From a virus: a stretch of 64,000 bases of DNA. The DNA lies in the IMG/VR virus record IMGVR_UViG_3300013126_000019, positions 16,689-80,688 of that record. One strand, 5' to 3'. Position 1 is the first letter of the stretch, and the number at the start of each line of letters is the position of its first letter. The notes beneath the pieces are model-generated. The model was not told the origin of the DNA. It worked only from the letters and a program-made list of their open reading frames with translations, and did not search any database. Positions 13,001-64,000 of the stretch are shown piece by piece. Made by a program: the position numbers and the translations under genes.

Positions 13001-13508
13001 ACTCAGGCTTAGGCATTTTGTACATGTCCTCAGCACTAGATTTTGCAAAGTCTTGGGCCCAATAGTTTAAAGCTCTATCACCACCTTCCCACCACATACC
13101 ATTCTCAAGAACTTTAGGGTCCATTGTATTCTTAAGTTTTTGACCTCTTTGCATTTCTCTTTGCCATATACGAGTCATACCCATATCAAAATTGATATCT
13201 TTATCCTCAATAAGCGGTTGAAAAATTTTAGCAGCAGCATTAACATTTTGCTCTAAAGACAAATCCATTGTAGAGATCTTTTGGATCTTTTGCTCAATGT
13301 CTCTAAAGAATTGGTCTCTACGCTCAGAGCTTTCTTGTCTAAGTACTGGTGAATTAAGTAAGCCCGAGTATATACTGTTAATACGGTTATATCCCTGGTC
13401 GTATTGGTATTGCTTGGTAGCAAGCATATTACCAAAGAAATTAAGGTCCGGCTGATATGGCTGGATCTCAGGAACAAATTGGGATATACCTTGTAAAAAA
13501 GCTGTCAT
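10095..13508 (-). CDS. virion cargo/ejection protein (1137 aa)
   Basis: Long helical Q/N-rich ORF with a G/S linker; TAATG-coupled to the next giant gene. Confidence 0.7.
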   Translation of the reverse strand: MTAFLQGISQFVPEIQPYQPDLNFFGNMLATKQYQYDQGYNRINSIYSGLLNSPVLRQESSERRDQFFRDIEQKIQKISTMDLSLEQNVNAAAKIFQPLIEDKDINFDMGMTRIWQREMQRGQKLKNTMDPKVLENGMWWEGGDRALNYWAQDFAKSSAEDMYKMPKPEYTPYLNITKLASDQLDKMDFPMGINPTWTPDGKYIIQGKGGPMTMAPLYNYLLNMYGNDPRVIKVAQTEAYLKRKDFVSQNAQAMGGEQNAETQYLNNILNQVNVQAQRFQEQATTNAKVAKAKTKVISNAIANGDIYDPDKTLNNILGNNEEQAQVEEGAAQFHNETLQITNPEVLKASDFGSLRNRADVAVARDLLSEKLYNTAMNYAELNKEIKIDADPYAKAAFDNALDRSNMLLQAQIDQAKMQLQSQLNVSEMEYEMYLKDYYGDSQGKGSGSGSGKGNNGIDQRNPYSQDGWLLGDELTVTPGGSGTDGEQLTGNSIKSIVEGEVAAYENITAPILQSFATTLDKLYETAVGSNPDEALVAREAILKAFSAYLKPGQGQAALKASNQEYANWFNLYKNQVDLSGVSFSDPSKNDKGDYQPSFLEKNVANLKSALGDSAVLSILKSKLNMNQIYSSLDQSELNLALLRVARENQAYNNELVSKRTLQAVGPITSVLPARIDVEKRGDQFHVKYSDVDPTIEKNILVETNQAINERYNTLKKENPKKESGDLWDDAQEYGKEYYTKKMKAYFQGPGMASYSSMSDNGPFGSMTTSGGAPILYKWNGERVSANDAERGYKTKNLEETLNNRFDVISKTYNKTWNTIGGAVDQAAALARGEDPNNIEKLKTLTSTLYGSNAGGGLVGKVYRSDIDGAYAKNPGNSDYRQVFTDLENYMQTHKKNDGSFTLFSGKLSGGDDFDINDVLGKDFNDEAYQVLQQLRTDMSNAGSWKSNQATRPRALMDVRFNVAGSGFDALTFRVDGGYIKGLKESASKELTQEEQASEVSSSSLSDAREYTLMVPSGSFNNEFMTQLKKGDVYKDYVRNVGPININYNDVGRQRFSGNATIRFDQPTQSYIAAGQINMIDPNTGSVIQDPNGIINTVLGENDNLGIWKKTTEQLLEVRNQQLINDFRTWNQYYKKSK

Positions 13509-13561
13509 AATTATGCTATAAAATTATTACAAATCATTTAGATTTACTAAACTTCAAAAAT

Positions 13562-16420: not shown

Positions 16421-16423
16421 GTC

Positions 16424-19400
16424 TTATTGATTATAAGGATTGTCAAAGTTATAATTATTATCTACATATTCAACCTCTCCTCCATTTTCAATGATTTGTT
16501 TAATCATTTCTGGAGTTAAGGTATACACACCACCCTGCTGCATAGTCATAAATAATTCAGCACCTTTTTGTGCATACTGAGGAATTAAGGGTTGACCATA
16601 CTGAACATTTGCACCAGCAAAAGGAGCTCCTGCAAAGGCATCTGTTGTTCTATCAAAACCTCTTAGTCTTGGACTAAACTGTGTATCTGGTGATGTAAGT
16701 GCTAAGTTATTCTCTAAGAATCTGCTAGCTTTAAATTGTTTATATGCATTATTTCTTTCATCGCTAGAAAACACACCATCTGCTAAATATTTACCGGTTG
16801 CATTAGCAATGTTTAAATATCCTGCTGGAGAAATAGAACTTCTAATTTTACCTTTACCTGACGCTGTTGCTTCTTGCTGAGGTTCTTTACCGGTGTATTT
16901 TGGAACATACTGATCCAGTTGTTTTCCAAATGCATCAGCTGTTAATGGAGCATTACCGTTATCAAAGAAAGTTTGCATCCTATTAGCATCAGGAAACACA
17001 TTAACATCAGGTAATCCTAAGCCTTGCGTTTTCTTATTAGGATTCATATTAATAGGGTTTATTTTCCTATTAAGAGGATTTTGTGTATTCCAGTTAATGC
17101 CTGGATAAGTTTTATTAGGATCTGCACTTGGTAGTGCATATACGCCTACACCAAAATTAGGATCATAGATATCCTTTAATACACCATATCCAGGATACTC
17201 ACCATCTACTTGAAACATTGGTAGCATTGTACCACCATCTTGTTTACGATACTGTTGTATACGCGGTTCCCAAGTATAGCCATAAGCATCTGCTTTTTCT
17301 AAACTATCTAGGTAAGCATCTTTTTCAGCTTGCGACATTGCATTAAACTTTGTTTGATCAAAACCTTTTTTATTAGTTCTACCATAAGCTTTAAGACGCT
17401 CATCTAAATACTTATTAATAAAAGCTTTATTATCTTTACCGTAAGCTTCTGAAAATGCTTTTTGTGTATTAGGATCATTAAACAATGCTGTTAACTGATC
17501 AGCATTATAATTATACCTATCAGCATCGTTAATAATACCTTGAGATAGCATTAAGGTTAATCTTGGATCTATACTTTGATTAAATAGCTGGTCCATTACA
17601 GCAGGTCGAATATCTGCAGGTAAAGCATTAACATCAAATCCTTTAATTTTTGCTCTATTCTGATCTCTACCGGAATAATCAATATTTTTCCAATTGTAAA
17701 ATTGCTCTGGGTGTTGAGTTAAGGGTGTATACTCTAATAACCCTGAACCTAATGGACTACCCTTTGTAATTTCATATTGAGCTATCTGATTAATAAATGG
17801 TAAATTTTCTTTTTCTACAGTATTCCAGTCATAATTAGTATTATAAAAAGGCTGGCTTGCTGATGCCGTATTTACAGGAGGTGGTGCAGTGTTTGTACTT
17901 TGTGTTACTGTAGGATTTGCGCCTGTTGCTGGTGCTGTTACTGGAGTACTTGTTTGTACACCAGTACCCATTAAGTCATAAGGGTTTCTAGGTCTTGTAC
18001 CTATCATACCTGCACTTGCAATTTTTTTAGTATTTGCTTCTTCTTCAGCAATTTGATTATCATATGATGCTCTTGCAGCTTCTGTTTCTTCTCTTACTCT
18101 TTGTTTATCTAAATTCTCAAAATAATCTTTACCAAGACGTCTTAAGTTTTTACGGTTAGGATCTATACCTGCAGACTCAAGAACATCTCTTCTATCTCTC
18201 CTAGAGCGGTTCTCCCAGATATAAGGATTCATCTCATCAGTTTGGAATAAACCTCCGCCGGGCATATCTGCATTTTGAGCTCTGATTGCTCTATTTCTAT
18301 TTGCTTCCATACGGTCAGCATCAAAAATACTTTGACCTTCTGGTAATATAGTTTGATTTATATTATAGTTCCTCGTGTCAAACATTTTACCTATACCAAT
18401 TTTGTCAAGGAATCTACCGGCTGCTGTAGGGTCAGCTTCAAACTCAGTTAAGAATCTATCATATTGACCTTTACTTGTTGCATCCTTATACATCTCCTTA
18501 TAGTTTTGAGAATATTCCATATCAGGAATAGTCATATATCTATAAGGACTTAATCCCATATAAGCGCCAGGACTTGGTCTATCAATTCCAAGATTTGTAT
18601 ATGTTTGTGGGGCAGCGGTCCCAGTAAGTAATTCTGGAGCAAAACCTGGACCAGACACACTTACGTTAGGTAGATTTAAGCCATCTCGGCTTGGGTAATT
18701 ATTTAGGTAAGAGAAATCGGCAGATGGACCAAAAGATGGTGTAGGATTATCGTTATATGCTTTAGCAACAGATTGATAATAAGTATTGTACGCATCTTCC
18801 GTAGCTTGTTGTAATTGCTCTTTAGTCAACAAATTTCCTTGTGCATCATAAACAGGTTGATCTGAATTATAATTACCCAAGGTATTTTGAAGATTAGTTT
18901 CTGCTTCCACAACTTCTCTAGGTTTGTATGCTGATGATGAAGTAGTGTTTGCTGTAGTTCCAAAAGTACTACCTGTAGTACCCATCATCTGAGCTTTAGG
19001 TAAACTGTTAGCAGAACCACCTTTCTTTTGTGTTTGGGGTGTTTGTTGCGTTTGAGTATTATTACCCACACCATATCTGCTAGCATAAACTTGTTTGTTA
19101 TATGCGCTAATAGCAGGATTTAATATTGTGTTAGCCGTTGTATTAAAAAGACCTTTAAGTGAATTTAAACCTACACCCTCGTATTTGTCTGACTCCTTTT
19201 TAAAAACTTCACTATTAGCTGGTGTTAGATCCATTTGTGATGGATACATAAAAGGCCCGGGTAAACTTTCCATACGCGCACCTAACTCCATACCATAGGC
19301 GGCTTTAGGTACACCGCCCATTAGTTGTTGAGCATGCAGTTGTTGTAAATCTTCAAATGGTGGAAGTTGTAAAGCTCTACCCAACATATCCTGAGCAGCT

Positions 19401-52088: not shown

Positions 52089-53089
52089 TAGCTTAACGAG
52101 AAATTAAATGAAACAGTAGTGATTTGTGCTGATGTAGCACCTCCTACCACGTTAGGATTTTTTGCTATGCAGTACAATCTATCGCCATTTGAAAATGATA
52201 CAGTTGTACCATCATCTGTTGCGTATACTCCTGCAGCACTACCTGCGGCAATAGTAACTTTAGCGCCTAAAACGGATGCCGTTGCATTAGCTACATAAAC
52301 TTGAAGACTATTTGTTGCTGGGTTAGCAGACCTTGTTATTACTCTCATTTTGCTTGCTACTCCAGCAGGCATTGGGTACCCGGGCATAAAAGCAGCTGCC
52401 GCACTACCATAATCACCTGCTGTAACAGCTACGGTAGCTACTGGTGTACCCCCTAAATAAATTGAACCTCTAGCCCCGTTTGTGATACCCGCTCCGTTAG
52501 CATTTCCAACAAAGACAGTAGTATTTGAAGTTTGATAAGTATTTGTATCTAAAGCAAATGTACCCGCAGCAGTCATTTTTACAAAAGGCGTGCCCGATAC
52601 CCAAGCAGGATAGTTAACAGCTGCCCACGTCCCTAGTGTTGGAGTCCCTGTAAGTTTACTATAAGCTAAACTTGTAAGCCAAGAAGGGTCAGCATAACTA
52701 CCTGAACTTAATAAATCTCCAACAGTCCAGGATCTATCTGCTGATAAATCGTAGCTTGTGCCGTTAATATTAAGAGTTCTTGATGTTGGAACATAGCCTG
52801 TTAAAGACGCTGATGTAATGTATCCAGCAGGGTTAGTTAGTGGGTAATATGTACTTGCAGCTGATGCAATAGTTAAATAACTAGATAGTGCTGCAGATGT
52901 AATATACCCTGCAGGGTTGCTAGCGTCATACTTTAAGTTAAGTGCTGTTTGTAAATCTGTTTGCGCAGATAAAGTACCTGTAATAGTACCCCATACAGCA
53001 GCACCAGGAGGAGATGTAGATAAAATATTATAGATCTCCTGGAGACGCTCTAGTGTAAGTAACTCAAATTTATTATTAGTAGCGGACAT
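52088..53089 (-). CDS. fibre protein
   Basis: WGTITGTLSAQTDLQ, duplicated NPAGYITSA and RTLNINGTSYDLSADRSW fibre motifs. Confidence 0.7.
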   Translation of the reverse strand: MSATNNKFELLTLERLQEIYNILSTSPPGAAVWGTITGTLSAQTDLQTALNLKYDASNPAGYITSAALSSYLTIASAASTYYPLTNPAGYITSASLTGYVPTSRTLNINGTSYDLSADRSWTVGDLLSSGSYADPSWLTSLAYSKLTGTPTLGTWAAVNYPAWVSGTPFVKMTAAGTFALDTNTYQTSNTTVFVGNANGAGITNGARGSIYLGGTPVATVAVTAGDYGSAAAAFMPGYPMPAGVASKMRVITRSANPATNSLQVYVANATASVLGAKVTIAAGSAAGVYATDDGTTVSFSNGDRLYCIAKNPNVVGGATSAQITTVSFNFSLS

Positions 53090-53523
53090 TACAATTGTAC
53101 AAATGCATTAAGAACATACCATGTGTCAACATTAGTAGGATTAGCCATTACTGTAACTGATCCTAATTGTCCCGGTGACCCAGGAGGATCTAATGTAAGT
53201 GTTGCATAATCTCCCTCATCAAAGGTGGTACTACCTACTGTATCTATAGTTAATGTATCAGCGGATGTATTTTTGATTACAATTGTCTGACCCAGTAAAC
53301 TATTGGTAGATGGTAAATACAAGTTTATGCCACCACCGGTAGTAGGTCCAACAACATTAATATATGTGATGTAACTAATTAATTCAGCGCATGATAAGCT
53401 GTAGTCGGTTAATCCCTCAGCAAAATAATCCAGAGTAATTACATTAGGTGCTCCTACTGGAGTAGATTTCACATTAGGTTTTGTAAATACGTTATTACTA
53501 AAAAAGTTATTATTTCCAGCCAT
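53089..53523 (-). CDS. fibre/spike-like beta protein
   Basis: LYLPS...GQTIVIKN...LTI...W motif. Confidence 0.5.
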   Translation of the reverse strand: MAGNNNFFSNNVFTKPNVKSTPVGAPNVITLDYFAEGLTDYSLSCAELISYITYINVVGPTTGGGINLYLPSTNSLLGQTIVIKNTSADTLTIDTVGSTTFDEGDYATLTLDPPGSPGQLGSVTVMANPTNVDTWYVLNAFVQL

Positions 53524-53813
53524 TATTTCAATCTTTTATTATTTCCTTTTCCATTACGAGCACGGTTAGTAGACCGCGATTCCTTAACCAGTTTACCCGA
53601 TTTAGTATGAGATTCATCTTTACCGTCTTTATTACCATAGGTCCCATCAGCTCTATTTGCCATATTTAACTGTGCCCGGTATTTGTTCCTCTCTGGTGTG
53701 CTGTGATACTCTTTATTATAGGCATTCTTTTTAGCACGTGCCTCAGGATGGCTAGCAAAATATTTAGCCGATTTAGACTTGCCCGTAGATTTTCCAGCTA
53801 GACTATTTCTCAT
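53523..53813 (-). CDS. small basic protein, HNH-like
   Basis: DGKDESH...STNRARN resembles a reduced HNH motif. Confidence 0.45.
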   Translation of the reverse strand: MRNSLAGKSTGKSKSAKYFASHPEARAKKNAYNKEYHSTPERNKYRAQLNMANRADGTYGNKDGKDESHTKSGKLVKESRSTNRARNGKGNNKRLK

Positions 53814-53894
53814 ATTATAAAGATATAAAATTTTTAGCTAAGTTACTGAAGTATAGAGTTTTTTTACTAAACTTGTATAAGATATCTAAAGCAT

Positions 53895-54896
53895 ATGCCT
53901 CAACTTTCACCTACTGGCAAACTTGCCAAACAGTATTTAAAGAAGTATCCTAAACTTCCTATCCTCACGATTGCCAAACTCATGTATTCTGAAAATGACC
54001 TACACTTTAATAGTGTTGAGCATGCAAGAAGTATACTTAAAAAACATGCTGGACTAGCAGGTGCAAAGTCTAGAAAAACGGTAGATGCAGAAGTGCAAAG
54101 ACAAATCAGTTATAACTATGCACCGTTTAACAACATCCCCAAATCATTTAAGTCTGGACCCAATATCTTCACGTTACCAAGTGATGCAAATAACATCCTT
54201 GTTCTTTCAGATATACATTTTCCTTATCATGATGAAGACGCTCTTGCAGCAGCAATACAATATGGAATTGACGAGCAGGTTAACACAGTACTTCTTGATG
54301 GTGATGTACTAGACTTTTATCAGTTATCACGATTTGATAAAGACCCTAGTAAACCTAAGCTAAAAACAGAGCTTGAACAAGGTAGATGGTTTATGGCAGC
54401 ATTACGTGAAACATTCCCTGATGCTAGAATCTATTATAAAGTTGGTAACCACGAGGATAGACTAGAAAAGTGGTTAAAGATTAAAGCTCCAGAATGGTTA
54501 GGTATGGAGGAGTTTGAACTTAAAATGCTACTACGCTTTGGTGAAAACCGCATAGAACTTATAGAATCTGACGCAACAATAAAAGCTGGTCATTTAAACA
54601 TCATACACGGTCATGAATACTTAGGAGGTGGTACAGTAAATCCAGCAAGAAATTTGTATCTTAAAGCTAAGGCCAGTACAATCTGCGGACACTTCCATAG
54701 AAAATCAGAGTTTGTTACCCGGGATATTAATAACCATATCCAAGGAGCATGGACAATGGGATGTTTATGTGAGTTATACCCAGAGTACATGAAAGGTCAC
54801 AGTGATTGGGTACACGGATTTGCGGTAGTCAAAGTAAACAAAGACGGGTCCTTCTCTGTAGATAACAAAATGATCATTGACGGTAAAGTAGTATAA
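53895..54896 (+). CDS. calcineurin-like metallophosphoesterase
   Basis: SDIH, GDVLD, GNHE, HGHE and GHFH motifs. Confidence 0.9.
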   Translation: MPQLSPTGKLAKQYLKKYPKLPILTIAKLMYSENDLHFNSVEHARSILKKHAGLAGAKSRKTVDAEVQRQISYNYAPFNNIPKSFKSGPNIFTLPSDANNILVLSDIHFPYHDEDALAAAIQYGIDEQVNTVLLDGDVLDFYQLSRFDKDPSKPKLKTELEQGRWFMAALRETFPDARIYYKVGNHEDRLEKWLKIKAPEWLGMEEFELKMLLRFGENRIELIESDATIKAGHLNIIHGHEYLGGGTVNPARNLYLKAKASTICGHFHRKSEFVTRDINNHIQGAWTMGCLCELYPEYMKGHSDWVHGFAVVKVNKDGSFSVDNKMIIDGKVV

Positions 54897-54898
54897 CT

Positions 54899-55120
54899 AT
54901 GGCAACAACTATTAAAGCAGGTATCTATATTGATCCACTAAGTGAGGATCAATCTACCCCGGATGTATATATAGATCATAGTATTATCCAGATCTATAGT
55001 CAAGAAGATATTTTAGTAGTTGAACTTACCTATGAAGAACTCCGGGGTATAATGGCCATCATGGCAGCAGAACAAGAAAAGACCCACTTAAGAATCCAGG
55101 CCATCAGTAGAAATAACTAA
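54899..55120 (+). CDS. hypothetical protein
   Basis: 73-aa ORF starting 2 nt after the phosphoesterase stop. Confidence 0.55.
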   Translation: MATTIKAGIYIDPLSEDQSTPDVYIDHSIIQIYSQEDILVVELTYEELRGIMAIMAAEQEKTHLRIQAISRNN

Positions 55121-55861
55121 GTCTCTCAGCTTAGACTTAAATATCATAAACCTGTAGTCATCTGACTTCAACCACTGGGTATAAGCATCCAAGACTCTTC
55201 TAGAATCTAGTGACCCCATACGTTGTGGATAGAAATACCATATTATAAGAAGAAAGCTGGAAATGATTAACAGGATTAATACCTTTCCTGAACGCCCTAA
55301 ATCTGATATAGTCTTCCCCATTAGCTTTAATTTCTAGAGCCTCAAACACTTCCATAAGGCTAGCTTGATCATCTTCTCTATAAGTCATAGGACAAATATA
55401 TAATAAATCTTCATATAAACACCCCCGGGTAATAAACTTTGTTGGGATACCCCCGGGGCATGGTGCGAGATCTATAATATGTAATGGCTTTTTAAATTTA
55501 TACTGTGGGAGAGAGTGTGGGTGGTCTTCTATAGCAACCACCCCGGCTCGCTCCGCTCGGGGGGTCACCCCCTGTCAAACGGCTAAGCATGCTCTCGCTT
55601 CACGCACACACCCACCCCCACCCCACAAGCCCACCGCACATGGCCATCTGCACGCTGTGCACTGGCGTCCTTCGGCCACCGCGCACACCACGCAGCTGTG
55701 CCATCTCCTGCCCGCACCTGCCCGCACTCGCTTCAAATCACACTCACCATCGCCAAGGCATATTTCTATATAGCGGTTTTCACTATTGTTATATAATATG
55801 ACCAAACGGTGTATGCAGGCTACCGACAAGTGTCTGCACTAACGGCTAAAACTTAATCACA

Positions 55862-56545
55862 ATGGAACAGAACTTCCAAGCCGTAATGCGTTTAGAAGAC
55901 CGACGCTCAACAAACGGGTCTTCACTTATCTGTCGTTATGCTTGTATTGGTGCAGGCTTAACTGAATTATTGTTAAACACTCTTGAAGCTGGTGCAAAGA
56001 CGCGCCTTGGCAACATTTGGGTATTTGACCCTAATTCAACAGACCCTCAAATTAGGGAACGGTCACTTGCAGACTGTGCGTGGTTCAAACGCGAGACAGG
56101 TGCAGACTTGACTCAATACCTACCTGCGGGCACACCAATCGTGCTGACCTCAACCGACACACCTGTCCACTATTTCCTCACGGGATACAAGGCAGATATG
56201 TCTATTGACGAGTCAGGGCGTACTTATCTATCTCAGCATCCTGACCTTGTGTCAAGAGATACCGAGATGCAAGCCATTTTCCGTGAACAGCGTAAGACAA
56301 TGCGTCTTGCAGGTCTGGACCGTGAAAAGGCTGACATTGCCATTGCTAACTCATTTATGTCTGTACTGACTGACGAGATTAAAGCAATGCGCAGTGTCAA
56401 GACACCTAAGGTCAACCTTTCTGAATTAGATTTCAGCAAGATAGACTTTGGTGCTGTCCCTGTCACACCACCTGCAGACAAGCAGGAAGACTTGAACTTG
56501 CCTGACTTCAGCACACCTGCTGATGACACAAAGGCAAAGGCCTAA
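55862..56545 (+). CDS. early hypothetical protein (227 aa)
   Basis: Follows the repeat element; acidic disordered tail; terminator downstream. Confidence 0.75.
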   Translation: MEQNFQAVMRLEDRRSTNGSSLICRYACIGAGLTELLLNTLEAGAKTRLGNIWVFDPNSTDPQIRERSLADCAWFKRETGADLTQYLPAGTPIVLTSTDTPVHYFLTGYKADMSIDESGRTYLSQHPDLVSRDTEMQAIFREQRKTMRLAGLDREKADIAIANSFMSVLTDEIKAMRSVKTPKVNLSELDFSKIDFGAVPVTPPADKQEDLNLPDFSTPADDTKAKA

Positions 56546-56564
56546 GTCCTTGGTGCAAAGAAAT

Positions 56565-56600
56565 CCTCGCATAGCCTTCGGGCTGTGCGGGGTTTTTTTT
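56565..56600 (+). terminator. intrinsic terminator
   Basis: CCTCGCATAGCC-TTCG-GGCTGTGCGGGG-T8 (cUUCGg loop). Confidence 0.9.
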
Positions 56601-56755
56601 CTCTGTCCACAGGCCTGGTCCACCCGATCCCCCCGCAATACGCTTCACACACACTCACCTTACTCATAGTGTGGCGCTTCGCGGTAATGATTATTTACTA
56701 TCACCTACACCTAAAGTGGTTACACTCTAATATGGAAAACTTAATACATACATAT

Positions 56756-57079
56756 ATGAACACAACTCGACCAATCTTATCCTGCGCGGGTAGAAAAGCA
56801 GTGTCTATTGACTCTGCTCTATTACAGGAACTCTTATTGAGTTTCAAACCTAACACCATTGGAATCAGAGAAAGGGCAAACCGATTAGGAAACTCCTTAT
56901 TTGCATTAGACTCTGGTGAATATGGTGATAAAAGCCTTGAAGCATTCAAGGAAATAATCACAACTGAGTTCTTATCTATCCAACTGATGGAGGCAAGCAA
57001 ACTTGCGAGACAGGGATCTGCGGATGCTGTTGCTGATGCACCATCAACGGATGATAGCGAGTACCATCTTGGTGCGTAA
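56756..57079 (+). CDS. early hypothetical protein (about 107 aa; start reassigned to MNTTRP)
   Basis: The track start at 56585 lies inside the terminator; an AT-rich leader precedes ATG 56756. Confidence 0.65.
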   Translation: MNTTRPILSCAGRKAVSIDSALLQELLLSFKPNTIGIRERANRLGNSLFALDSGEYGDKSLEAFKEIITTEFLSIQLMEASKLARQGSADAVADAPSTDDSEYHLGA

Positions 57080-57089
57080 CTCATTAACT

Positions 57090-57122
57090 ACAGGGTATCC
57101 CAATTGGGGTACTCTGTTTTTT
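57090..57122 (+). terminator. intrinsic terminator
   Basis: ACAGGGTATCCC-AATT-GGGGTACTCTGT followed by a T run. Confidence 0.8.
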
Positions 57123-57428
57123 ACTATAACCTCTCTCCAATAAACCAATATACTACTATGGTTGGAAAGCTAACTGAGTCTTGTATGTGGGATGGAGACA
57201 GACTAATATGCTGTAAATGAGTGTGTTAGTATTTTACCATTCTTGGAATCCTATGAGAGACACAAGGAGAGGGAAGGGCATGGAAATGCTTGTATGCGCG
57301 CTTCGCGCGCTTCTTTTCCCCCCGCGCGCTTTACGCAAACTCACTTTATTCAAGGTATTGCGCTTCGCGTGAGTGTTAACTCATATGCGTGATTACCAAC
57401 AAGTTAGGATATTATATAGATACATACA

Positions 57429-57992
57429 ATGTTAAAAGCAATTTACATTGGTAGTGGCGAGAAGGGAGTTTCTCGTAATTACAAGGTTACCGGTCCTACA
57501 ACCGAGTTAGTAGCATTTAAAGCTTGGAACTTAAGCCAAATTGGTAAAGATGGATTACCTATCTTACGCAAGTTCCCAGATGTACTTACTGTACCAAGCA
57601 AGCTTTATAATGAAGCCGGTGAGATTATTGGTGACAAGCCTTTATTCTTTACAGGTATTGTGCAAGCAAGACAATTGTTAGCGGGTGAGCGTATAGGCCA
57701 AACGGTCTATGAGTTAATTCCAAATGCCTATGAATCAGCTATTAAGGCTGTTATGGAGAGCGATGGAATTGAGGTTACCACAACATTGGTTAACTTGGGA
57801 GTTATTAATAAGGCAGAATTAGACTCTGCAACTTATGGGATGGCTCACGAGTTACCTTCAGGTACTGCAGTTCCCACTGTTGCAACGCCTACTTTGTCAA
57901 ATAACATTGATTTATCAATGCCAGAGACACCAGCTGATGAATCTAAGCCTGAAACCAAAGGTTCAGAGAAAAAAGACTACACAAAGTCTTGA
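57429..57992 (+). CDS. early hypothetical protein (187 aa)
   Basis: Follows the fourth repeat copy; disordered acidic tail like the 227-aa protein. Confidence 0.75.
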   Translation: MLKAIYIGSGEKGVSRNYKVTGPTTELVAFKAWNLSQIGKDGLPILRKFPDVLTVPSKLYNEAGEIIGDKPLFFTGIVQARQLLAGERIGQTVYELIPNAYESAIKAVMESDGIEVTTTLVNLGVINKAELDSATYGMAHELPSGTAVPTVATPTLSNNIDLSMPETPADESKPETKGSEKKDYTKS

Positions 57993-58641
57993 TAATCAAG
58001 TAGTTAAGAGTGAGTATGTGAGTGTTAAAAACCCACTGCTCACTCTCTAACTATCTGATTACCAGCACAAAAAGTACAAAAAGTTGAACATTATATGGCT
58101 AGCTATGATACGCACTATTAACTTTATTGGTAAACTCTATTCTCACATTGTCTCTATGTATTACTCTCTTAGAGATAGATACTACTATGTTAGATTTCAC
58201 ATAGTCAGGCTCCGGGGCGGAGTTTGCTACGGTTACTTCTCTGTTAGTGATGACCCCGATAATGTCATTGCTCTATAAGTGATACCTTTCACTAGTTTAA
58301 TCCTAGTCTAACTTTCACAGGTAAAACTTGTACTGATATACAGGTAATCCTATACTAGGTAGGTTCTTGGTTCCGTGGGTTAATCACCACGTTAAACAGC
58401 AGGATTATATGATACACTAATGTTTTTTTAAATCAAGTTGGAAAACAGAAGGTGATGCCTATAATCTAATAGGCTATGTGTATTTACCCAAAGGTCAGTC
58501 TATGGGATATTACTGAAGTAATAGTTACACGGATGATTGGTATAAGGACTTGACAAGTCTATCCAAAGGTAGTTTGAAATTACAGGTGTATGTCAAAACA
58601 CCACTAACAAAACAGTTGTATTGTATTACAGTACAACTGTT

Positions 58642-58834
58642 TGTATTAATGCACCATAACTTACTTCACAAGGGTAAGCAGTTGTAACAAACCTTCTTGA
58701 TAAACCTGAATAATTACAGGTCAAGGTAATGCTATGCTTGTCATAGATATACACAACGGACTCTATGAGTCTAAACTAGGTTAGGAAGTGATTCCTTATA
58801 ACCAATGTGTTACAACTGAGTGCAGAGTGGTACA
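58642..58834 (+). ncRNA. twister-ribozyme-like element 1 (type P1 variant with extended P5)
   Basis: P1 TGTAT/GTACA; TAA; P2 TGCAC/GTGCA; P4 CTTACT/GGTAAG; L4 TCACAAG; T1 TCAC:GTGG; GAG; P5 CAGTTGTAACA/TGTTACAACTG. Confidence 0.7.
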
Positions 58835-58888
58835 TAGTGTGCAAGAGACCGATTTTTGATTAAGTTTATCGGTCAGTGTTTAACTTAG

Positions 58889-58928
58889 AAACCGTGGGTG
58901 TTTAGCCGTGCCCACGGTTTTACTTTTT
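58889..58928 (+). terminator. intrinsic terminator-like hairpin
   Basis: AAACCGTGGG...CCCACGGTTT-TACTTTTT. Confidence 0.6.
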
Positions 58929-58977
58929 ACGGTTAGCTATATTGATGAGTAAACAAAAACAACTAATAATAACAACT

Positions 58978-59178
58978 ATGGCAGAAATTAAAGAAATCAC
59001 TATGTGCAAAATAACTCTTATTGAAGACATCAATAAAGTGCACAAGCTTAGTACAGGTACTAACATTAACGTAAATACATTTGATACTCTATATGATATG
59101 AATGTAGAGAGATTAGAGATACATTTGCAAATGGTAGTCTTTAAATACGAACTTATGAAACTTGTTAATGAAATGTAA
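58978..59178 (+). CDS. small protein, paralog of 62956..63192
   Basis: KITLIEDINK.H.L....FD.LYDM..E.LE..LQ is shared; A-rich leader before ATG 58978. Confidence 0.7.
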   Translation: MAEIKEITMCKITLIEDINKVHKLSTGTNINVNTFDTLYDMNVERLEIHLQMVVFKYELMKLVNEM

Positions 59179-59277
59179 CTTAACAACTAATAAGAAATAA
59201 AATACTCCGAGGGTGCAGTAATCGTCAACCACAGTAAATATGTGAGTTTGGGTTACTGTACCTACGAGTATACTATA

Positions 59278-59351
59278 TTGTAAAGTAAAGAATGTTAACT
59301 GCACTATAAACTAAATGGTATGTTACACAAACACATTCTGTATCTTTACAA
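59278..59351 (+). ncRNA. TROVE-associated hairpin RNA, unit A
   Basis: Outer stem TTGTAAAG/CTTTACAA; AGAATGT/ACATTCT-G; CTGCACTATA. Confidence 0.65.
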
Positions 59352-59356
59352 CCTTA

Positions 59357-59443
59357 TATTCTTACTCTTAAAGGAATAGTCTCAGCACTATAACTCTACC
59401 ATCTAAATAGGTTAAACAGTCCCTATTCTGCAGAGTAAGAATA
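59357..59443 (+). ncRNA. TROVE-associated hairpin RNA, unit B
   Basis: Outer stem TATTCTTACTCT/AGAGTAAGAATA; GGAATAG/CTATTCT-G; CAGCACTATA. Confidence 0.65.
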
Positions 59444-59448
59444 CAAAT

Positions 59449-59574
59449 TGTTATAATATTAGCTAGTACAACGGACAAGGCTCAGGGTCAAGGTGATTTA
59501 CCGTCAAGGTAACATTCTACCGTTAAATAGACATGGGTAGCGCGTGGTTGACCAGCTAGCTAATTATTGTAACA
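59449..59574 (+). ncRNA. multi-stem structured RNA between units B and C
   Basis: Closing stems TGTTATAATA/TATTGTAACA and TTAGCTAG/CTAGCTAA; inner GGTCAA/TTGACC and TTACC/GGTAA. Confidence 0.5.
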
Positions 59575-59578
59575 TTAA

Positions 59579-59689
59579 GCACATCAAAGAATGAAACAGC
59601 GCTATATATATAACTATAACGCAAAACCCAGAGATTGGTAGGCCACAGCAGTTAACTGCAAGGCTCTCTCGTCATTCTGTAGTATGTGC
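59579..59689 (+). ncRNA. TROVE-associated hairpin RNA, unit C
   Basis: Outer stem GCACAT/ATGTGC; AGAATGA/TCATTCT-G; CAGCGCTATA. Confidence 0.6.
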
Positions 59690-59756
59690 AAAGCCGGGTA
59701 GTGATACTCGTGGCCTGCCAAACTCAAAATTGTTTAACCTTAAATTCCTTAAAGCA

Positions 59757-61154
59757 ATGGATAACTTTACCAATGCAATGTTTTCTAATGACAGTCTTAC
59801 TAATAACGGTGCTATTACACATAGTACTGCAGGTAATTACTGTCTTGACCTGTTCTTTTTAGCAGGTGCGAGCCGTGAAATGTCTAATGAAGATATCTTA
59901 AAAGCATTTATTAGAGCTTATCATGAAGATAAGTCAATAGCTCTTAAGATTCTATTTTGGGCACGTGATGCACGTGGTGGTGCTGGTGAGAAGAGATTCT
60001 TCCAGGTTATTATGCGATCTTTATTAGCCAATGAACCAGAGGTATATGAGCAGTTAGCTATATATATCCCAACTTTTGGCTATTGGAAGGATATTTTTGT
60101 TATTGAGACACCTACCGAGAACACCCTTAATTGGTTATCTATTCAGTTAGATGAAAACCCTAATGCTAATCTATTAGCTAAGTGGTTCCCAAGAAGAGGA
60201 CCTTGGTTTGTAGCAATGCATAAGTATTTGGGTGTTAGCCCTAAAGCTTTCCGTAATCGCTTAGTTACTATGTCTAATACCGTAGAGCAGAAGATGTGTG
60301 CTAATGAATGGGAAACTATTCAGTATAGCCAGGTACCTTCTGTTGCAGGTAAGACATATAGTAGAGCATTTAACATGCACGATGGTGTAAGATACGCCTC
60401 TTATATCAGTGATGTTATGGAAGGTAAGCAGAAGATGAATGCTTCAGTACTATTTCCTAGTGATCTTGTACATAAAGTATTTGCGGGTGAGTCTGATACA
60501 AGTGCATATGATGCAATGTGGAAGTCTCTACCTAACTTTATGCAAGATTGTACAGAGCGTATATTACCGGTATGTGATGTATCAGGTAGTATGGCAGGTA
60601 CACCTATGGAAGTATCTATAGGACTAGGTATGTATATCTCAGAACGTAACGAGGGTCCTTTTAAGGATTTAGTGTTAACGTTTAGTAATGAACCCGAGTT
60701 TCACATGATAGAGGGTAATACTTTTACTGAAAGAGTAAATAACCTACATCAAGCAAACTGGGCTATGAATACTAATCTTTATTTAACATTTAAAGTATTA
60801 CTGAGACGTGCTGTTGCAGGTAAAGTATTACAAGAAGAGATGCCTACTAAGATCCTGATTATCAGTGATATGGAATTTGATAGGGCTTGTGGTAATCATA
60901 CAAACTTTGATGAAATCAAGGATATGTATGCACAAGCAGGTTATCAAATGCCGGGCTTAGTCTTCTGGAATGTTAACGGTAGACTTGGTAATTCACCAGT
61001 TAAAGCTGATACACCAAACACTGCACTTGTTAGTGGGTTTAGTCCCAGTATCATCAAGTCTGTATTAGGTGGTGATGACTTGAGTCCGGTAGCTGTGATG
61101 CTGAAGACTATTAATACAGAAAGATATGAATGCATTAAAGTAGATTCTCTATGA
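59757..61154 (+). CDS. Ro60/TROVE-like RNA-binding protein with VWA (MIDAS) domain, DUF2828-type
   Basis: T.NGA..H.T, LDLFF, RDARGGAGE, GYWKD, AKWFPR, MIDAS DVSGSM, SDMEFD, FWNV and VSGFS motifs; ATG at 59757. Confidence 0.85.
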   Translation: MDNFTNAMFSNDSLTNNGAITHSTAGNYCLDLFFLAGASREMSNEDILKAFIRAYHEDKSIALKILFWARDARGGAGEKRFFQVIMRSLLANEPEVYEQLAIYIPTFGYWKDIFVIETPTENTLNWLSIQLDENPNANLLAKWFPRRGPWFVAMHKYLGVSPKAFRNRLVTMSNTVEQKMCANEWETIQYSQVPSVAGKTYSRAFNMHDGVRYASYISDVMEGKQKMNASVLFPSDLVHKVFAGESDTSAYDAMWKSLPNFMQDCTERILPVCDVSGSMAGTPMEVSIGLGMYISERNEGPFKDLVLTFSNEPEFHMIEGNTFTERVNNLHQANWAMNTNLYLTFKVLLRRAVAGKVLQEEMPTKILIISDMEFDRACGNHTNFDEIKDMYAQAGYQMPGLVFWNVNGRLGNSPVKADTPNTALVSGFSPSIIKSVLGGDDLSPVAVMLKTINTERYECIKVDSL

Positions 61155-61423
61155 AAGCATTATTTATAATTCTGTATTATGTTATAGGACTTACGGCAGT
61201 TACAATAATTGCAGTAGGTTGTGATCATAAACAACCTGAAGCTGCAACTAAGTACCCTTATCTTATTAGAGATGGTAGAGATTATGGTACTATGATATAC
61301 TGCGATAAAGCTACATCATTAAGCGCTAGCAGAGTACAATACATTAGGGGTAGTGATACCCTTATTGTTGAGTCTGATAGGTACCTGTACATCCAAACTA
61401 ACTCATACTATATCCCTAAATAG
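61151..61423 (+). CDS. lipoprotein
   Basis: MK, hydrophobic stretch, then IAVG-C lipobox; ATGA-coupled to the TROVE gene. Confidence 0.7.
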   Translation: MKALFIILYYVIGLTAVTIIAVGCDHKQPEAATKYPYLIRDGRDYGTMIYCDKATSLSASRVQYIRGSDTLIVESDRYLYIQTNSYYIPK

Positions 61424-61450
61424 GTTAATATAATATGAATTTATAATCTT

Positions 61451-61484
61451 AAATAGAGTGTATCAATGACATACACTCTATTTT
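61451..61484 (+). terminator. terminator-like hairpin
   Basis: AAATAGAGTGTAT...ATACACTCTATTTT. Confidence 0.5.
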
Positions 61485-61564
61485 CCTATACTCTATGTTA
61501 CCGGGAAATCGGTTAAGGGACAACGGTCCCGGGTTAAGAATTAGTCACTACTCGGTGACATAGA

Positions 61565-61810
61565 GTTACTAATGTGCCACAACCCTAGTGTATGAAGACT
61601 TCTTAGTGACAGCCATTAAACCATTAAGATGTGAAACCACAATAATTAACTTGAGCTAACCATAAAGACAGGGCTATGCGTGACTCAGTTCACCCTGTTA
61701 GTTAATCATTTTCCCAAGTTAGGGCAGTTGTAGCAGTACGTGAAAGCACGTAAATTATGGACGCTGTAGCCCAGCAAACCAGCTACTACAACTGAGCACA
61801 GAGGGGTAAC
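61565..61810 (+). ncRNA. twister-ribozyme-like element 2 (with an insertion of about 120 nt in L4)
   Basis: P1 GTTAC/GTAAC; TAA; P2 TGTGC/GCACA; P4 CCCTAG/TTAGGG; TCCCAAG; T1 TCCC:GGGG; P5 CAGTTGTAG/CTACAACTG. Confidence 0.6.
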
Positions 61811-61914
61811 AAGCATAGCATAAGTGCTGATGAAACGATGCAAGTATGGGATACTTACTATCTCACATGTAGACTGAAAGGTCTACTCTTTAAGTAATCT
61901 AATCACACAACATC

Positions 61915-62145
61915 ATGGCTCCAGAAGAAAAGGGAAAAGAAATTCAAGCGGAGATTACAAGGATAATCAGAGAAAGAGGTACGCTAAGTAGAAAGCTACA
62001 AGCAGATGGACATCCTAACCCAAAAAATGAAGCTAGTAGGCTAATCAATCTCAAGTATGGAAAAGGTTGGAAAGAAAAGCTAGAACTGCAAGATCCCACT
62101 AGAGAGTATGGGAAAAATCTGTTAAAAGTGTCTTATTACTATTAA
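61915..62145 (+). CDS. hypothetical protein
   Basis: 76 aa; TAATCACACAA leader shared with the next gene. Confidence 0.65.
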   Translation: MAPEEKGKEIQAEITRIIRERGTLSRKLQADGHPNPKNEASRLINLKYGKGWKEKLELQDPTREYGKNLLKVSYYY

Positions 62146-62158
62146 TCACACAAAACTT

Positions 62159-62434
62159 ATGAGAAGCAATAAAGAACTATTAGAGCTGATGTTAAAGAAT
62201 CAGCATCATTTTACAAAAGTATCAGGTTTATGTCACTGGGTAAATCTTGTTTGTGCTCATAAAGTTATTACTGAAGATGAAGCAGATTCTCTTATGTCAT
62301 TAATTCATTGGAATCGCCCACGGAAGAAGTGGAGCAGCATTAGTGCTTACAGTAACGCAGGCTTCTACTGGGAGCCAGGTAAAATCAAGCCACGTATTAA
62401 GTGGATCAAAAAGCAAATCAAACTAAATTCTTAA
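62159..62434 (+). CDS. hypothetical protein
   Basis: 91 aa; GLC...FYW...RIKW pattern seen in small phage proteins. Confidence 0.65.
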   Translation: MRSNKELLELMLKNQHHFTKVSGLCHWVNLVCAHKVITEDEADSLMSLIHWNRPRKKWSSISAYSNAGFYWEPGKIKPRIKWIKKQIKLNS

Positions 62435-62438
62435 TCAA

Positions 62439-62945
62439 ATGGCAAAATCAATACCTGCTACTAAAATGGTAGCTAAAAAGCCTGTTGCTAAAACTAAATC
62501 ATCACCTGATTTTTTAGAAAAAGTGACAACAGTTAAAGTTAATTGGAAGAAAGTACCTAATGGAACTTATGTTAGTGTTGGGGTAGGTAGTAAAAGAACT
62601 ATCTCTGGTTTCTTTTATAGAGAAGAACCATCAGCTGATGAGTTTTTTATCTTACATGATAATTACAATAATGCTGGAAATTCTCCTAAATATATGTCAA
62701 CTAGTACTTTCAAGTATGGTTGGGTTATTCTTGATGATGATACTGAACTTCTTGAAGACGTTGAGTTTCCTCCAATATTGTTTGATCGTAAAACAATGAG
62801 ACTTCCTAAAAAACCAACTAATGTTATTAGAATTGGTGATTATGACGCTACTGTTACTAATGCTAGTATCAAAGTAGGGTGTACTACAGTACCCCGCAAG
62901 AAAGTAGAAGCTGTGCTTAAACTCATGCAATCACTTGATAAATAA
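62439..62945 (+). CDS. hypothetical protein
   Basis: 168 aa; C-terminal IGDY.A.V...IKVGC motif. Confidence 0.7.
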   Translation: MAKSIPATKMVAKKPVAKTKSSPDFLEKVTTVKVNWKKVPNGTYVSVGVGSKRTISGFFYREEPSADEFFILHDNYNNAGNSPKYMSTSTFKYGWVILDDDTELLEDVEFPPILFDRKTMRLPKKPTNVIRIGDYDATVTNASIKVGCTTVPRKKVEAVLKLMQSLDK

Positions 62946-62955
62946 AACTAATAAA

Positions 62956-63192
62956 ATGGATACAGAACACTTAACAAAGATTACTCTTATTGAAGATATC
63001 AATAAGATGCATAATCTAGAGTACGGGGGTAACCTCACTGCAGAAAATTTTGATGAACTGTATGACATGCCTAATGAAGATTTAGAGCGTGTGCTACAGA
63101 TTATAACGGCTCAACATGAGCGTGCGGGCCTTAGTGCTGCTGAACTACTTAACTTTCTTACTAATACTTCTCAATATGGCAAAAAAGATTGA
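62956..63192 (+). CDS. small protein, paralog of 58978..59178
   Basis: KITLIEDINK...FDELYDM; ATG at 62956. Confidence 0.7.
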   Translation: MDTEHLTKITLIEDINKMHNLEYGGNLTAENFDELYDMPNEDLERVLQIITAQHERAGLSAAELLNFLTNTSQYGKKD

Positions 63193-63484
63193 TGAACTTA
63201 CAGAAAAGCTAAGTCATGAGGATAATGATCTTAAAGCTATGGGTATTATTAGGAAGATTACCCGGGAAAAACGTAATGATAACTTTTTAGATAAGTGGTT
63301 ACCACGTATTGAAGCAAAGTGTACCGTTACAGTTGATCCAAACATGGGTAAGTATACTATTCAACCCACACCAAAGGGTATTATAGATTACTACCCAAAA
63401 TCCAATAGACTATTAATCCGTACAAGTAATACTTGGAAGGATGGTGGTCTTGCAATATTAATTAACTTACTGAAACTAAGATGA
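63176..63484 (+). CDS. hypothetical protein (start reassigned to MAKKIDE)
   Basis: ATG at 63176; IDYYPKSNRLLIR..W. Confidence 0.65.
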   Translation: MAKKIDELTEKLSHEDNDLKAMGIIRKITREKRNDNFLDKWLPRIEAKCTVTVDPNMGKYTIQPTPKGIIDYYPKSNRLLIRTSNTWKDGGLAILINLLKLR

Positions 63485-63801
63485 GCAAGACAAAGAACAC
63501 CCCAGAATTTCAACGCATGATGGATGAGCAAGAACTTATGCAATCTTTTCACCATGCTGAACAAGAGTTAGAGCGTGAGCAACTACTCAAAGATTTGGCA
63601 ATAGAAGATGCTATGCGTGATGCTATTCAAGAGTATATAGAAGCACAGAAGACTTTTATATCTGCACAAGACAAGTTTAAGAAAGCATTGGACTCATACA
63701 AAGAGTACAAGAATGGTCTTACAGATGAAGAGCAACCAGTAGAAGATACCGTAAGCCTATTAACCAATATGTTTGCAGGATTTAACCCTAATGCCCTATG
63801 A
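63481..63801 (+). CDS. coiled-coil hypothetical protein
   Basis: ATGA-coupled 106-aa ORF. Confidence 0.65.
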   Translation: MSKTKNTPEFQRMMDEQELMQSFHHAEQELEREQLLKDLAIEDAMRDAIQEYIEAQKTFISAQDKFKKALDSYKEYKNGLTDEEQPVEDTVSLLTNMFAGFNPNAL

Positions 63802-63965
63802 AGAAAGTTAACTTTTATATATTACTATACTTTGTAGTAATTATAGTTGTGGCTTCCTTGGTTTCTTGTACTCCGAGTAAACAAGTAACGGTGAACCCGT
63901 GTGAGAATATGGTAGTTAAGACTAAAGGGTATAACCCTAATCACTTACTACCTTATAGACATTAG
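63798..63965 (+). CDS. small lipoprotein (55 aa)
   Basis: Not in the ORF track. ATGA-coupled; MKK, hydrophobic stretch, then LVS-C lipobox. Confidence 0.65.
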   Translation: MKKVNFYILLYFVVIIVVASLVSCTPSKQVTVNPCENMVVKTKGYNPNHLLPYRH

Positions 63966-64000
63966 TCCTATTAGTCAGGACCTAACTAATAAAATTTATA

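Follow-up and report, generated by a model that had tools for sequence, protein, structure and literature searches.

Repeated one-stranded units before the early genes of a crAss-like lake phage as candidate promoters of its virion RNA polymerase

The stretch of DNA that we analyzed (the window) comprises 64,000 nucleotides (nt), namely, positions 16,689 to 80,688 of IMG/VR virus record IMGVR_UViG_3300013126_000019, and forms the final 64 kilobases (kb) of one viral contig of 80,688 base pairs (bp); our subject is a set of repeated sequence units that stand before three small genes at 55.5 to 57.4 kb of it. The contig comes from an uncultured crAss-like phage of lake metagenomes. Most of the window is taken up by structural and giant genes on the minus strand, and rightward genes begin at about 53.9 kb. 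Two features typical of Crassvirales-type phages were found: a structural gene, coding for a protein of 1,793 amino acids (aa) that matches the crassvirus muzzle family crAss_MUZ (PF25731; E = 6 × 10−16), and an early module with a TROVE-like gene (59730 to 61154, plus strand), whose 474-aa TROVE/Ro60-like product matches an "RNA-binding protein" family (PHROG 850; E = 5 × 10−137). As the early genes of crAss001, determined by RNA-seq, include a TROVE protein and a transcriptional regulator (PMC8375218), the TROVE gene is the marker that places the 55.5- to 57.4-kb stretch in the crAss early module. At 80.7 kb, against about 98 to 122 kb in related genomes, the contig is incomplete and stops within the rightward module, so that motif counts for the genome as a whole are minimum values; it probably lacks the replication genes. 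A blastn search of the region against GenBank phages gave no match, and no tRNAs were found.

Three rightward open reading frames (ORFs) of the plus strand concern us here: early gene 1 (55862 to 56545; 227 aa), early gene 2 (56732 to 57079), and early gene 3 (57429 to 57992; 187 aa). Genes 1 and 3 belong to no known family, and none of the three gave a lead in Pfam, PHROG, PDB, or the Atlas; for gene 1, no relative was recovered from viral contigs either. The start of gene 2 that is homologous to that of relatives is probably the ATG at 56756. Gene 1 is followed by an intrinsic-terminator-like hairpin of 12 pairs with a T8 run (56565 to 56600, plus strand) and gene 2 by a second such hairpin (57090 to 57117) with a T-run (whole feature, 57090 to 57123, plus strand). 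From left to right, the order is unit 2, gene 1, terminator, unit 3, gene 2, terminator, a 170-nt spacer, the palindrome GCGCGC-TTC-GCGCGC with a T-rich run, unit 4, and gene 3.

The units are recognized by two elements. A composite of CGCTT[CT]A, 2 to 5 nt, and CA[CA]AC[TC]CAC occurs in exactly four copies in the whole 80,688-bp contig (window 55596, 55729, 56641, and 57327), and GCGCTTCGC occurs in exactly three (56674, 57298, and 57360); every copy of either lies on the plus strand, the coding strand of the early genes, within 55596 to 57368. An earlier note on this DNA, made from its letters alone, had listed the four composites and extra copies of GCGCTTCGC and had proposed a count over the full genome as a check; our count over the contig confirmed both sets and added no further copies. 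Upstream of early ORFs, we thus have a repeated motif that is confined to one strand and absent from the rest of this incomplete contig. Shuffles of the whole window that keep dinucleotide composition gave expected counts of 0.03 for GCGCTTCGC and 0.00 for the composite. Because the 55.5- to 57.4-kb stretch is richer in G+C than the rest of the window, we shuffled 55540 to 57400 alone 2,000 times in the same dinucleotide-preserving manner: seven copies of CGCTTC were seen against 0.44 expected, three of GCGCTTCGC against 0.005, and four of the composite against 0.001, and the observed counts were reached in none of the 2,000 shuffles. The test of the composite is partly circular, since the pattern was derived from the same four copies; the tests of the hexamer and the 9-mer are not.

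Copy 1 (55596 to 55615, plus strand) consists of CGCTTCA followed by CACACCCAC and opens a C-rich tract; it is degenerate, having ACCCAC where the others have ACTCAC, and there is no ORF within 130 nt downstream of it. Unit 2 (55717 to 55748, plus strand), ahead of gene 1, is composed of a C-rich lead of two copies of CCTGCCCGCA, CGCTTCA, and CACACTCACC; it is without a mini-palindrome and is about 62 to 64% identical to units 3 and 4. Unit 3 (56629 to 56684, plus strand) comprises CCCCCCGC, CGCTTCA (56641), CACACTCAC-CTTACTCA (56650 to 56666), and the mini-palindrome CGC-TTC-GCG (56675 to 56683), and its arms CACACT (56650 to 56655) and AGTGTG (56668 to 56673) are able to pair. Unit 4 (57318 to 57376, plus strand) comprises CCCCCCGC, CGCTTTA (57327), CAAACTCAC-TTTATTCA (57336 to 57351), the mini-palindrome CGC-TTC-GCG (57361 to 57369), and GTGAGTGT, which is the ACTCAC core inverted. 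Over 56629 to 56684 and 57318 to 57370, units 3 and 4 are identical in 42 of 56 columns (75%); both open with CCCCCCGC, continue with CGCTTYA and CAMACTCAC-YTTAYTCA, and carry the mini-palindrome exactly 33 nt past CGCTTYA. Contigs assembled from four lake DNA runs contained identical copies only, with the units invariant.

Between the last base of the element and the annotated ATG there are 114 nt for gene 1, 73 nt for gene 2 (97 nt to the ATG homologous to that of relatives), and 84 nt for gene 3, in rough agreement with the 85 to 115 nt given in the earlier note. That note had also placed two copies just after a terminator. This is correct for copy 3, which begins 41 nt past the T-run of the terminator at 56565 to 56592, whereas copy 4 follows the hairpin at 57296 to 57317 and not the gene-2 terminator (57090 to 57117). 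DNA pattern scans of viral contigs for the signal recovered scattered single matches only. A near-identical match of 27 nt to the unit-3 box (CGCTTCA and CACACTCACCTTATTCA) is found in loci L007 (reverse, at about 1749 to 1780 of the reversed locus) and L016 (1145 to 1175); we set it aside because it falls within coding sequence on a 191-kb contig from an unrelated phage, and the likeness is probably due to chance, though long.

The phage also encodes an ORF of 3,558 aa on the minus strand (genome positions 6557 to 17233), of which the N-terminal end (the first 181 codons) falls at 1 to 545 of the window. Single-sequence searches with it found no match. It contains DFDND at residue 2287, at a site where DFDxDK is invariant in seven relatives, and a profile of its catalytic part together with six relatives matched gp66 of phage phi14:2 (6VR4_A; E = 1.7 × 10−21) over gp66 residues 1332 to 1677, a span that includes the DFDxDK site. 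This match indicates that the phage has a crAss-type, two-barrel virion RNA polymerase (vRNAP), in keeping with the premise of the earlier note that such phages bring their own enzyme; an AlphaFold model of the catalytic segment was poor (predicted local distance difference test score of 41). The closest polymerases by sequence are P0002 (90% identical, from a 118.5-kb contig) and P0005 (64%, from a 121-kb contig), and when viral contigs were scanned with protein patterns from gene 1, gene 2, and the polymerase, no close relatives emerged.

To place the units in a comparative context, we used a search with the TROVE gene, which yielded 43 loci, the 10 nearest being 72 to 80% identical to this phage in the TROVE protein. 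These 10 have the same general layout, yet each carries a repeated signal of its own lineage. Three motif classes were distinguished. (i) In class A, AACTCCTTACT occurs 10 times on one strand over a span of 2.7 kb in a complete 116-kb genome, AAGTCCTTAAT 13 times in 4.7 kb in a complete 114-kb genome, and AAACTCTTTACT 10 to 12 times in L037; the motif comes after a terminator and about 27 to 33 nt before the ATG of a small ORF. (ii) In class H (L036, L042, L044, and G007), the signal is TTGC-NNN-GCAA, 4 to 9 nt, and ATAC..CATAT, and TTGC-NNN-GCAA with ATAC is present in four copies in G002 and three in G007. (iii) In class B, L038 and L040 repeat TTACTATCATC. The arrays of classes A and H are restricted to the early module and to one strand, between terminators and small ORFs, and, as far as our tests reach, the arrays of the relatives are not host-type promoters. 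Past its mini-palindrome, unit 4 of the window resembles the hairpin-type signal of L036, L042, and L044.

Phages that are about 80% identical in their TROVE and phosphoesterase genes differ in these signals, and gene 2 illustrates this at the level of a single gene. Its protein is 67 to 70% identical to the copies in L039 and L035 and 58 to 72% identical to those in eight metagenome contigs, and in all of these a class-A motif stands about 30 nt upstream. At the DNA level, homology to L039 and L035 sets in at 56770, within gene 2 itself, and in this phage it is unit 3 that stands upstream. The upstream signal of one and the same gene thus varies between genomes, which implies that the signal goes with the genome and not with the gene. 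Gene 3, compared with the genes of L036, shares a single stretch, the pentapeptide PLFFT.

We compared the catalytic region of the polymerase in seven genomes covering the three motif classes. Identity within a class is 93.5% for H, 65.7% for B, and 42.7% for A, and between classes it is 30 to 39%; the polymerase of this phage is at most 34% identical to any of the set compared, and its motif is likewise unique. In contrast, the TROVE protein is 74 to 89% identical among all of them and is not grouped by motif class, the highest cross-class pair being L039 (class A) and L040 (class B) at 88.9%. In this sample of seven genomes and three classes, a change of polymerase is accompanied by a change of motif, which is what a polymerase-specific promoter predicts, and the comparison is suggestive of a motif class that follows the vRNAP cluster rather than TROVE. 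As an observation in its own right, a polymerase that is 30 to 39% identical between phages with TROVE and metallophosphoesterase proteins 74 to 89% identical either evolves very fast or is exchanged as a module.

On these grounds, we regard it as an evenly balanced proposition that the repeated units are early promoters of the injected 3,558-aa gp66-type RNA polymerase (RNAP), one before each of genes 1 to 3, and that, together with this role, they represent one lineage-specific variant of the early arrays of crAss-like phages. In favor of this interpretation, all copies fall within 1.8 kb and on the strand that codes for the early genes, at numbers far above chance even relative to local composition; genes 2 and 3 are each preceded by a terminator and then a unit, and gene 1 is preceded by unit 2. 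We infer that transcription would start at the units, and the arrays of the relatives and the covariation with the polymerase lend comparative support to the earlier note's proposal of early promoters. Its emphasis on the mini-hairpin as the recognized element did not gain such support. Under the mechanism that we propose, the linear box CGCTTYA-N2-3-CAMACTCAC-YTTAYTCA and the C-tract ahead of it would give specificity, and the GCGCTTCGC mini-palindrome 33 nt downstream (GCGAAGC on the template strand) would be an accessory, which may help to open the duplex and offer a single-stranded template to an enzyme that prefers single-stranded DNA in vitro.

The mini-palindrome has several properties that make such an accessory role conceivable. 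At 56675 to 56683, 57296 to 57310, and 57361 to 57369, the template strand reads GC-GAA-GC, with stems of 3, 6, and 3 bp, respectively, so that it could form a hairpin of the N4 type, in which C-G closes a loop of three purines (sheared G:A). The DNA oligomer d(GCGAAGC) forms an extraordinarily stable mini-hairpin with a melting temperature of 76.5°C (PMC13037366), and the virion RNAP of phage N4 binds template-strand hairpins with GGA or GAA triloops (PMC4496689, PMC13037366); both statements were premises of the earlier note, and the literature bears them out. The perfect 6-bp palindrome GCGCGC-TTC-GCGCGC that it had described is real, with its coordinates shifted by one base (57296 to 57310 and not 57295 to 57309). 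In the intergenic hairpins of this phage, L036, L042, and L044, a GC-NNN-GC core is kept, while the outer pairs vary yet stay complementary (TTGC/GCAA, AATGC/GCATT, GCGC/GCGC, ATTCGC/GCGAAT, and CGC/GCG), and every loop reads T-N-Y on the coding strand and hence R-N-A on its complement, the template strand. This strand asymmetry of the loops argues against a symmetric protein site. In L036 (5365 to 5440), L042 (1218 to 1290), and L044 (1960 to 2045), at a place homologous to 57290 to 57400 of the window, three small palindromes (GCGC-TTC-GCGC, AATGC-TTC-GCATT, and ATTCGC-TAC-GCGAAT), each with a T-run, stand in tandem upstream of one early gene; they look like either a tandem attenuator or an array of template-strand GNA hairpins.

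Several observations weigh against the promoter assignment or against a part for the hairpin in it. There are only three or four copies, more of which may lie past the end of the incomplete contig, and the link between motif and polymerase comes from three classes in seven genomes. The units end 73 to 114 nt before the ATGs, compared with about 30 nt for class-A motifs, and a class-A position weight matrix found nothing above shuffles in this genome, so that we do not claim homology of the box to class A. Copies of the ACACTC core are overrepresented in the region on either strand (8 of the 21 genome copies, 4 on the plus and 4 on the minus strand, the latter at 55513, 57219, 57371, and 58020), a pattern that fits a binding protein, or inverted repeats, no less than a promoter. 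In phage phi14:2, the mapped early 5′ ends have no common upstream motif (10.1101/2020.03.07.982082). As for the hairpin, it is absent before gene 1 and in classes A and B; 57296 to 57313 doubles as a tandem direct repeat before a T-rich run; the L036 counterpart of that repeat, (GCTCGCTT)x2, is a direct repeat that folds poorly; and the DNA of units 3 and 4 folds only mildly better than shuffles (z of about −1.9 to −2.7), with no such effect in unit 2. These gaps, the overlap with a tandem repeat, and the weak folding are the reasons for which we take specificity to lie probably in the linear box and consider the hairpin to be possibly accessory.

Of the known systems, the early promoters P1 to P3 of N4 are the closest functional analogy (PMC4496689, PMC13037366). 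They too serve the early genes of a polymerase-injecting phage (injection here being assumed by analogy), they contain a small GC-rich palindrome that gives a GC-GNA-GC mini-hairpin on the template strand (GCGAAGC here; GCGGAGC or GAA loops in N4), and both the N4 vRNAP and the gp66-type enzyme require or prefer a single-stranded template. The features that define the N4 system, namely, its enzyme family and a hairpin at every promoter, are not found here: its polymerase is a T7-like single-subunit RNAP, whereas ours is of the two-barrel gp66 type; its hairpins have stems of 5 to 7 bp and are centered at −11 in every early promoter, whereas here there is none at gene 1 or in most relatives, the stems have 3 bp, with one of 6 bp, and what is conserved is a linear box lying upstream of the hairpin. 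Since the two-barrel enzyme is unrelated to the T7-like one, the N4 model invoked in the earlier note survives as an analogy and not as a family relationship. It is conceivable, though unlikely, that the two-barrel gp66-type RNAP has converged on the N4 trick and would start where a GC-GNA-GC mini-hairpin extrudes from the template, with a lineage-specific box for specificity. Such convergence, if real, would explain why gp66 transcribes single-stranded but not double-stranded DNA in vitro and why two or more vRNAP lineages (represented by this phage and by the G002/G007 group) have GC-triloop palindromes with covarying stems and strand-asymmetric loops at their early promoters.

The closest case with a related type of enzyme is that of the pre-early promoters of the Thermus phage P23-45, where a conserved phage-specific motif precedes the first genes, is associated with the two-barrel virion RNAP gp96, and is present only in relatives with a gp96-type enzyme (10.1101/2022.12.01.518664). 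That motif is AT-rich and was mapped by sequencing of transcription start sites and chromatin immunoprecipitation, whereas the units described here are GC- and C-rich, carry a mini-palindrome, and are known from the sequence alone. In phi14:2, which has a polymerase of the same family and likewise an early module of small genes and long noncoding stretches, gp66 makes the early transcripts in a rifampicin-resistant manner and transcribes single-stranded DNA well and double-stranded DNA poorly, and the long intergenic regions of the early module are highly transcribed (10.1101/2020.03.07.982082). It differs in having no common early motif, in contrast to the clear repeated motifs of this phage and its lake relatives, and we saw no GC-triloop palindromes in its first 14 kb. 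The arrangement of the genes recalls the PeSL cassettes of the T4-type phages RB49 and phi1 (PMC2839356), in which small genes are singly boxed between a terminator stem-loop and a repeated promoter and relatives differ by whole cassettes, much as this phage shares gene 2 with others and alone has genes 1 and 3. The PeSL promoters are strong sigma-70-like host promoters; here the terminators are present and there is no sigma-70-like site before genes 1 to 3.

Other readings of the units have to be set against a role as vRNAP promoters. They could be operators through which a DNA-binding regulator of phage or host turns the early genes off or on, beside or overlapping the real promoters elsewhere in the leaders. 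The ACACTC(A) core on both strands of the region would fit this, as would the inverted copies that flank the mini-palindrome of unit 4 (ACTCAC/GTGAGT) and come after the box in unit 3 (CACACT/AGTGTG); the 73 to 114 nt to the ATGs leave room for a separate proximal promoter, and a transcriptional regulator is among the early genes of crAss001. We nevertheless consider operators unlikely, given that the full composite is strictly one-stranded, that the hairpin loops are strand-asymmetric in a way that a symmetric dimer site does not need, that no DNA-binding domain was found in genes 1 to 3, and that, in the comparison of polymerases and TROVE proteins, the motif class follows the polymerase. 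A notch less probable are promoters of the host RNAP acting with a host or phage sigma-like factor in place of the virion enzyme. Position and layout would suit any promoter, the gp66 transcripts of phi14:2 lack a motif while its host-type middle promoters are clear, and the class-H signals have TTGC about 17 nt before CATAT-like hexamers. Against this, we found no sigma-70-like site on the plus strand upstream of genes 1 to 3 and no Bacteroidota −7 box (TAnnTTTG) on the plus strand from 53268 to 59076, nor was the Bacteroidota promoter consensus enriched in the whole genome (114 seen against about 102 expected; in composite form, 6 against 3.9), although the actual host may use another consensus; moreover, the signal differs sharply among phages with TROVE and phosphoesterase about 80% identical and tracks the vRNAP.

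The elements might instead work as RNA, in the form of leader structures, processing sites, or small terminators or attenuators made of a hairpin and a U-run, which we judge to be improbable. The palindrome at 57296 to 57317 (plus strand) scores as terminator-like, having a 6-bp GC stem with a triloop, albeit a short stem and an interrupted T-run; it can also be written as (GCGCGCTTC)x2 followed by TTCTTTT and may be a small terminator, a tandem repeat, or a template-strand GCGAAGC hairpin. The leaders are long, and L036, L042, and L044 have their three small hairpins with T-runs at the homologous place. On the other hand, leader RNA folds no better than shuffles, at nonsignificant z values of −0.5 to −1.6; the two GCGCTTCGC copies within units 3 and 4 have no T-run behind them; a GC-UUC-GC triloop on a 3-bp stem is weak as RNA, whereas the complementary DNA strand is the exceptionally stable form; and no Rfam match was obtained. 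Least probable of all, and by our estimate very improbable, is that the CGCTTC repeats and GCGAAGC mini-hairpins constitute a replication origin or primase entry sites at the switch of gene orientation. GCGNAGC or GCGNNAGC-type DNA hairpins that likewise act strand specifically on single-stranded DNA are known from the complementary-strand origins of G4, St-1, and alpha3 and from ssiA of RSF1010 (PMC13037366), the CGCTTC copies are seven on one strand and thus iteron-like, and the cumulative GC skew of the window has its minimum at about 56 to 57 kb. Yet those hairpins serve as primase sites at origins, whereas the ones here are part of gene leaders, past a terminator and ahead of the next ORF; over 1.8 kb, the copies alternate with genes, each having a terminator on one side and an ORF on the other, and they do not form a cluster next to an AT-rich unwinding element; a skew minimum at this place would follow from the switch of gene orientation alone; and the relatives have one motif per gene, up to 13, which is not the pattern of an origin.

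If the units are indeed vRNAP promoters, they would bear on a question that dates from the description of the crAss-type injected RNAP, whose promoter has stayed undefined since then; there is one experimental study, which yielded no motif, and we found no crAss early promoter motif published in the literature. This lake clade offers short and sharply defined candidate signals that differ between polymerase lineages and are thus ready positive and negative templates for in vitro transcription (unit 3 or 4 versus classes A, B, and H, with matched and mismatched polymerases). Should the mini-hairpin matter, it would tie the preference of the enzyme for single-stranded DNA to a concrete route of DNA opening. 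Gene-by-gene cassettes would also explain how related phages can exchange early genes and yet keep a start signal that fits the polymerase of the genome in question.

The early module is headed by a boundary element (55505 to 55575, plus strand) composed of GGGAGAGAGTGTGGGTGG, AACCACCCCGGC, and a GGGGGG-TCA-CCCCC palindrome. It recurs at the equivalent place in L039 (about 2945 to 3010) and L036 (about 3440 to 3505) and, as a variant, in another lake contig; the blocks seen across phages are GGGAGAG(A)GTGTGGG, AACCCCGGC, and a GGGGG-T(C)A-CCCCC palindrome. Being common to phages with different early motifs, the element is not lineage specific; it might signal packaging, an end, or first entry, or else act as a regulatory site that these phages have in common. 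The "direct terminal repeat" flags of IMG/VR cannot place the physical ends, as the contig ends of G001 and G003 differ in map position. To the left of the boundary element, a plausible leftward ORF of 60 aa (55208 to 55389, minus strand; start MTYREDDQ) lies between a 73-aa gene and the early module; given this ORF, the gap from 55390 to 55860, which includes the minus-strand ACACTC at 55513, may hold divergent promoters.

A second recurring element, TTTTTACTATCACCTCT, is present at 56696 to 56705 and 57122 to 57131 of the window and in L035 (3324, 6407, and 14026), L037 (5432 and 6531), and L039 (4163). In the relatives, an inverted repeat (GGTGATAG and CTATCACC, with a G-T pair once) often has this element as its 3′ arm; the element is placed after terminators and, unlike the class-specific signals, is conserved across motif classes. 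Gene 3 is followed by an inverted repeat of AGAGTGAG and CTCACTCT (58003 to 58050, plus strand), which has two ACTCAC cores on the minus strand and no T-run after it.

A search of 53000 to 64000 against Rfam (E ≤ 1) gave nothing credible, including no twister or Y-RNA match. The stretch between gene 3 and the TROVE gene is poor in ORFs and contains three blocks (58451 to 58687, 59275 to 59430, and 59573 to 59730) that are 74 to 94% conserved in many relatives; they are candidate noncoding RNAs beside the Ro/TROVE-like protein. Downstream of the TROVE gene, there is a further long noncoding stretch (61423 to 61915), with a weak class-A-like site at 61880 before the ATG at 61915.

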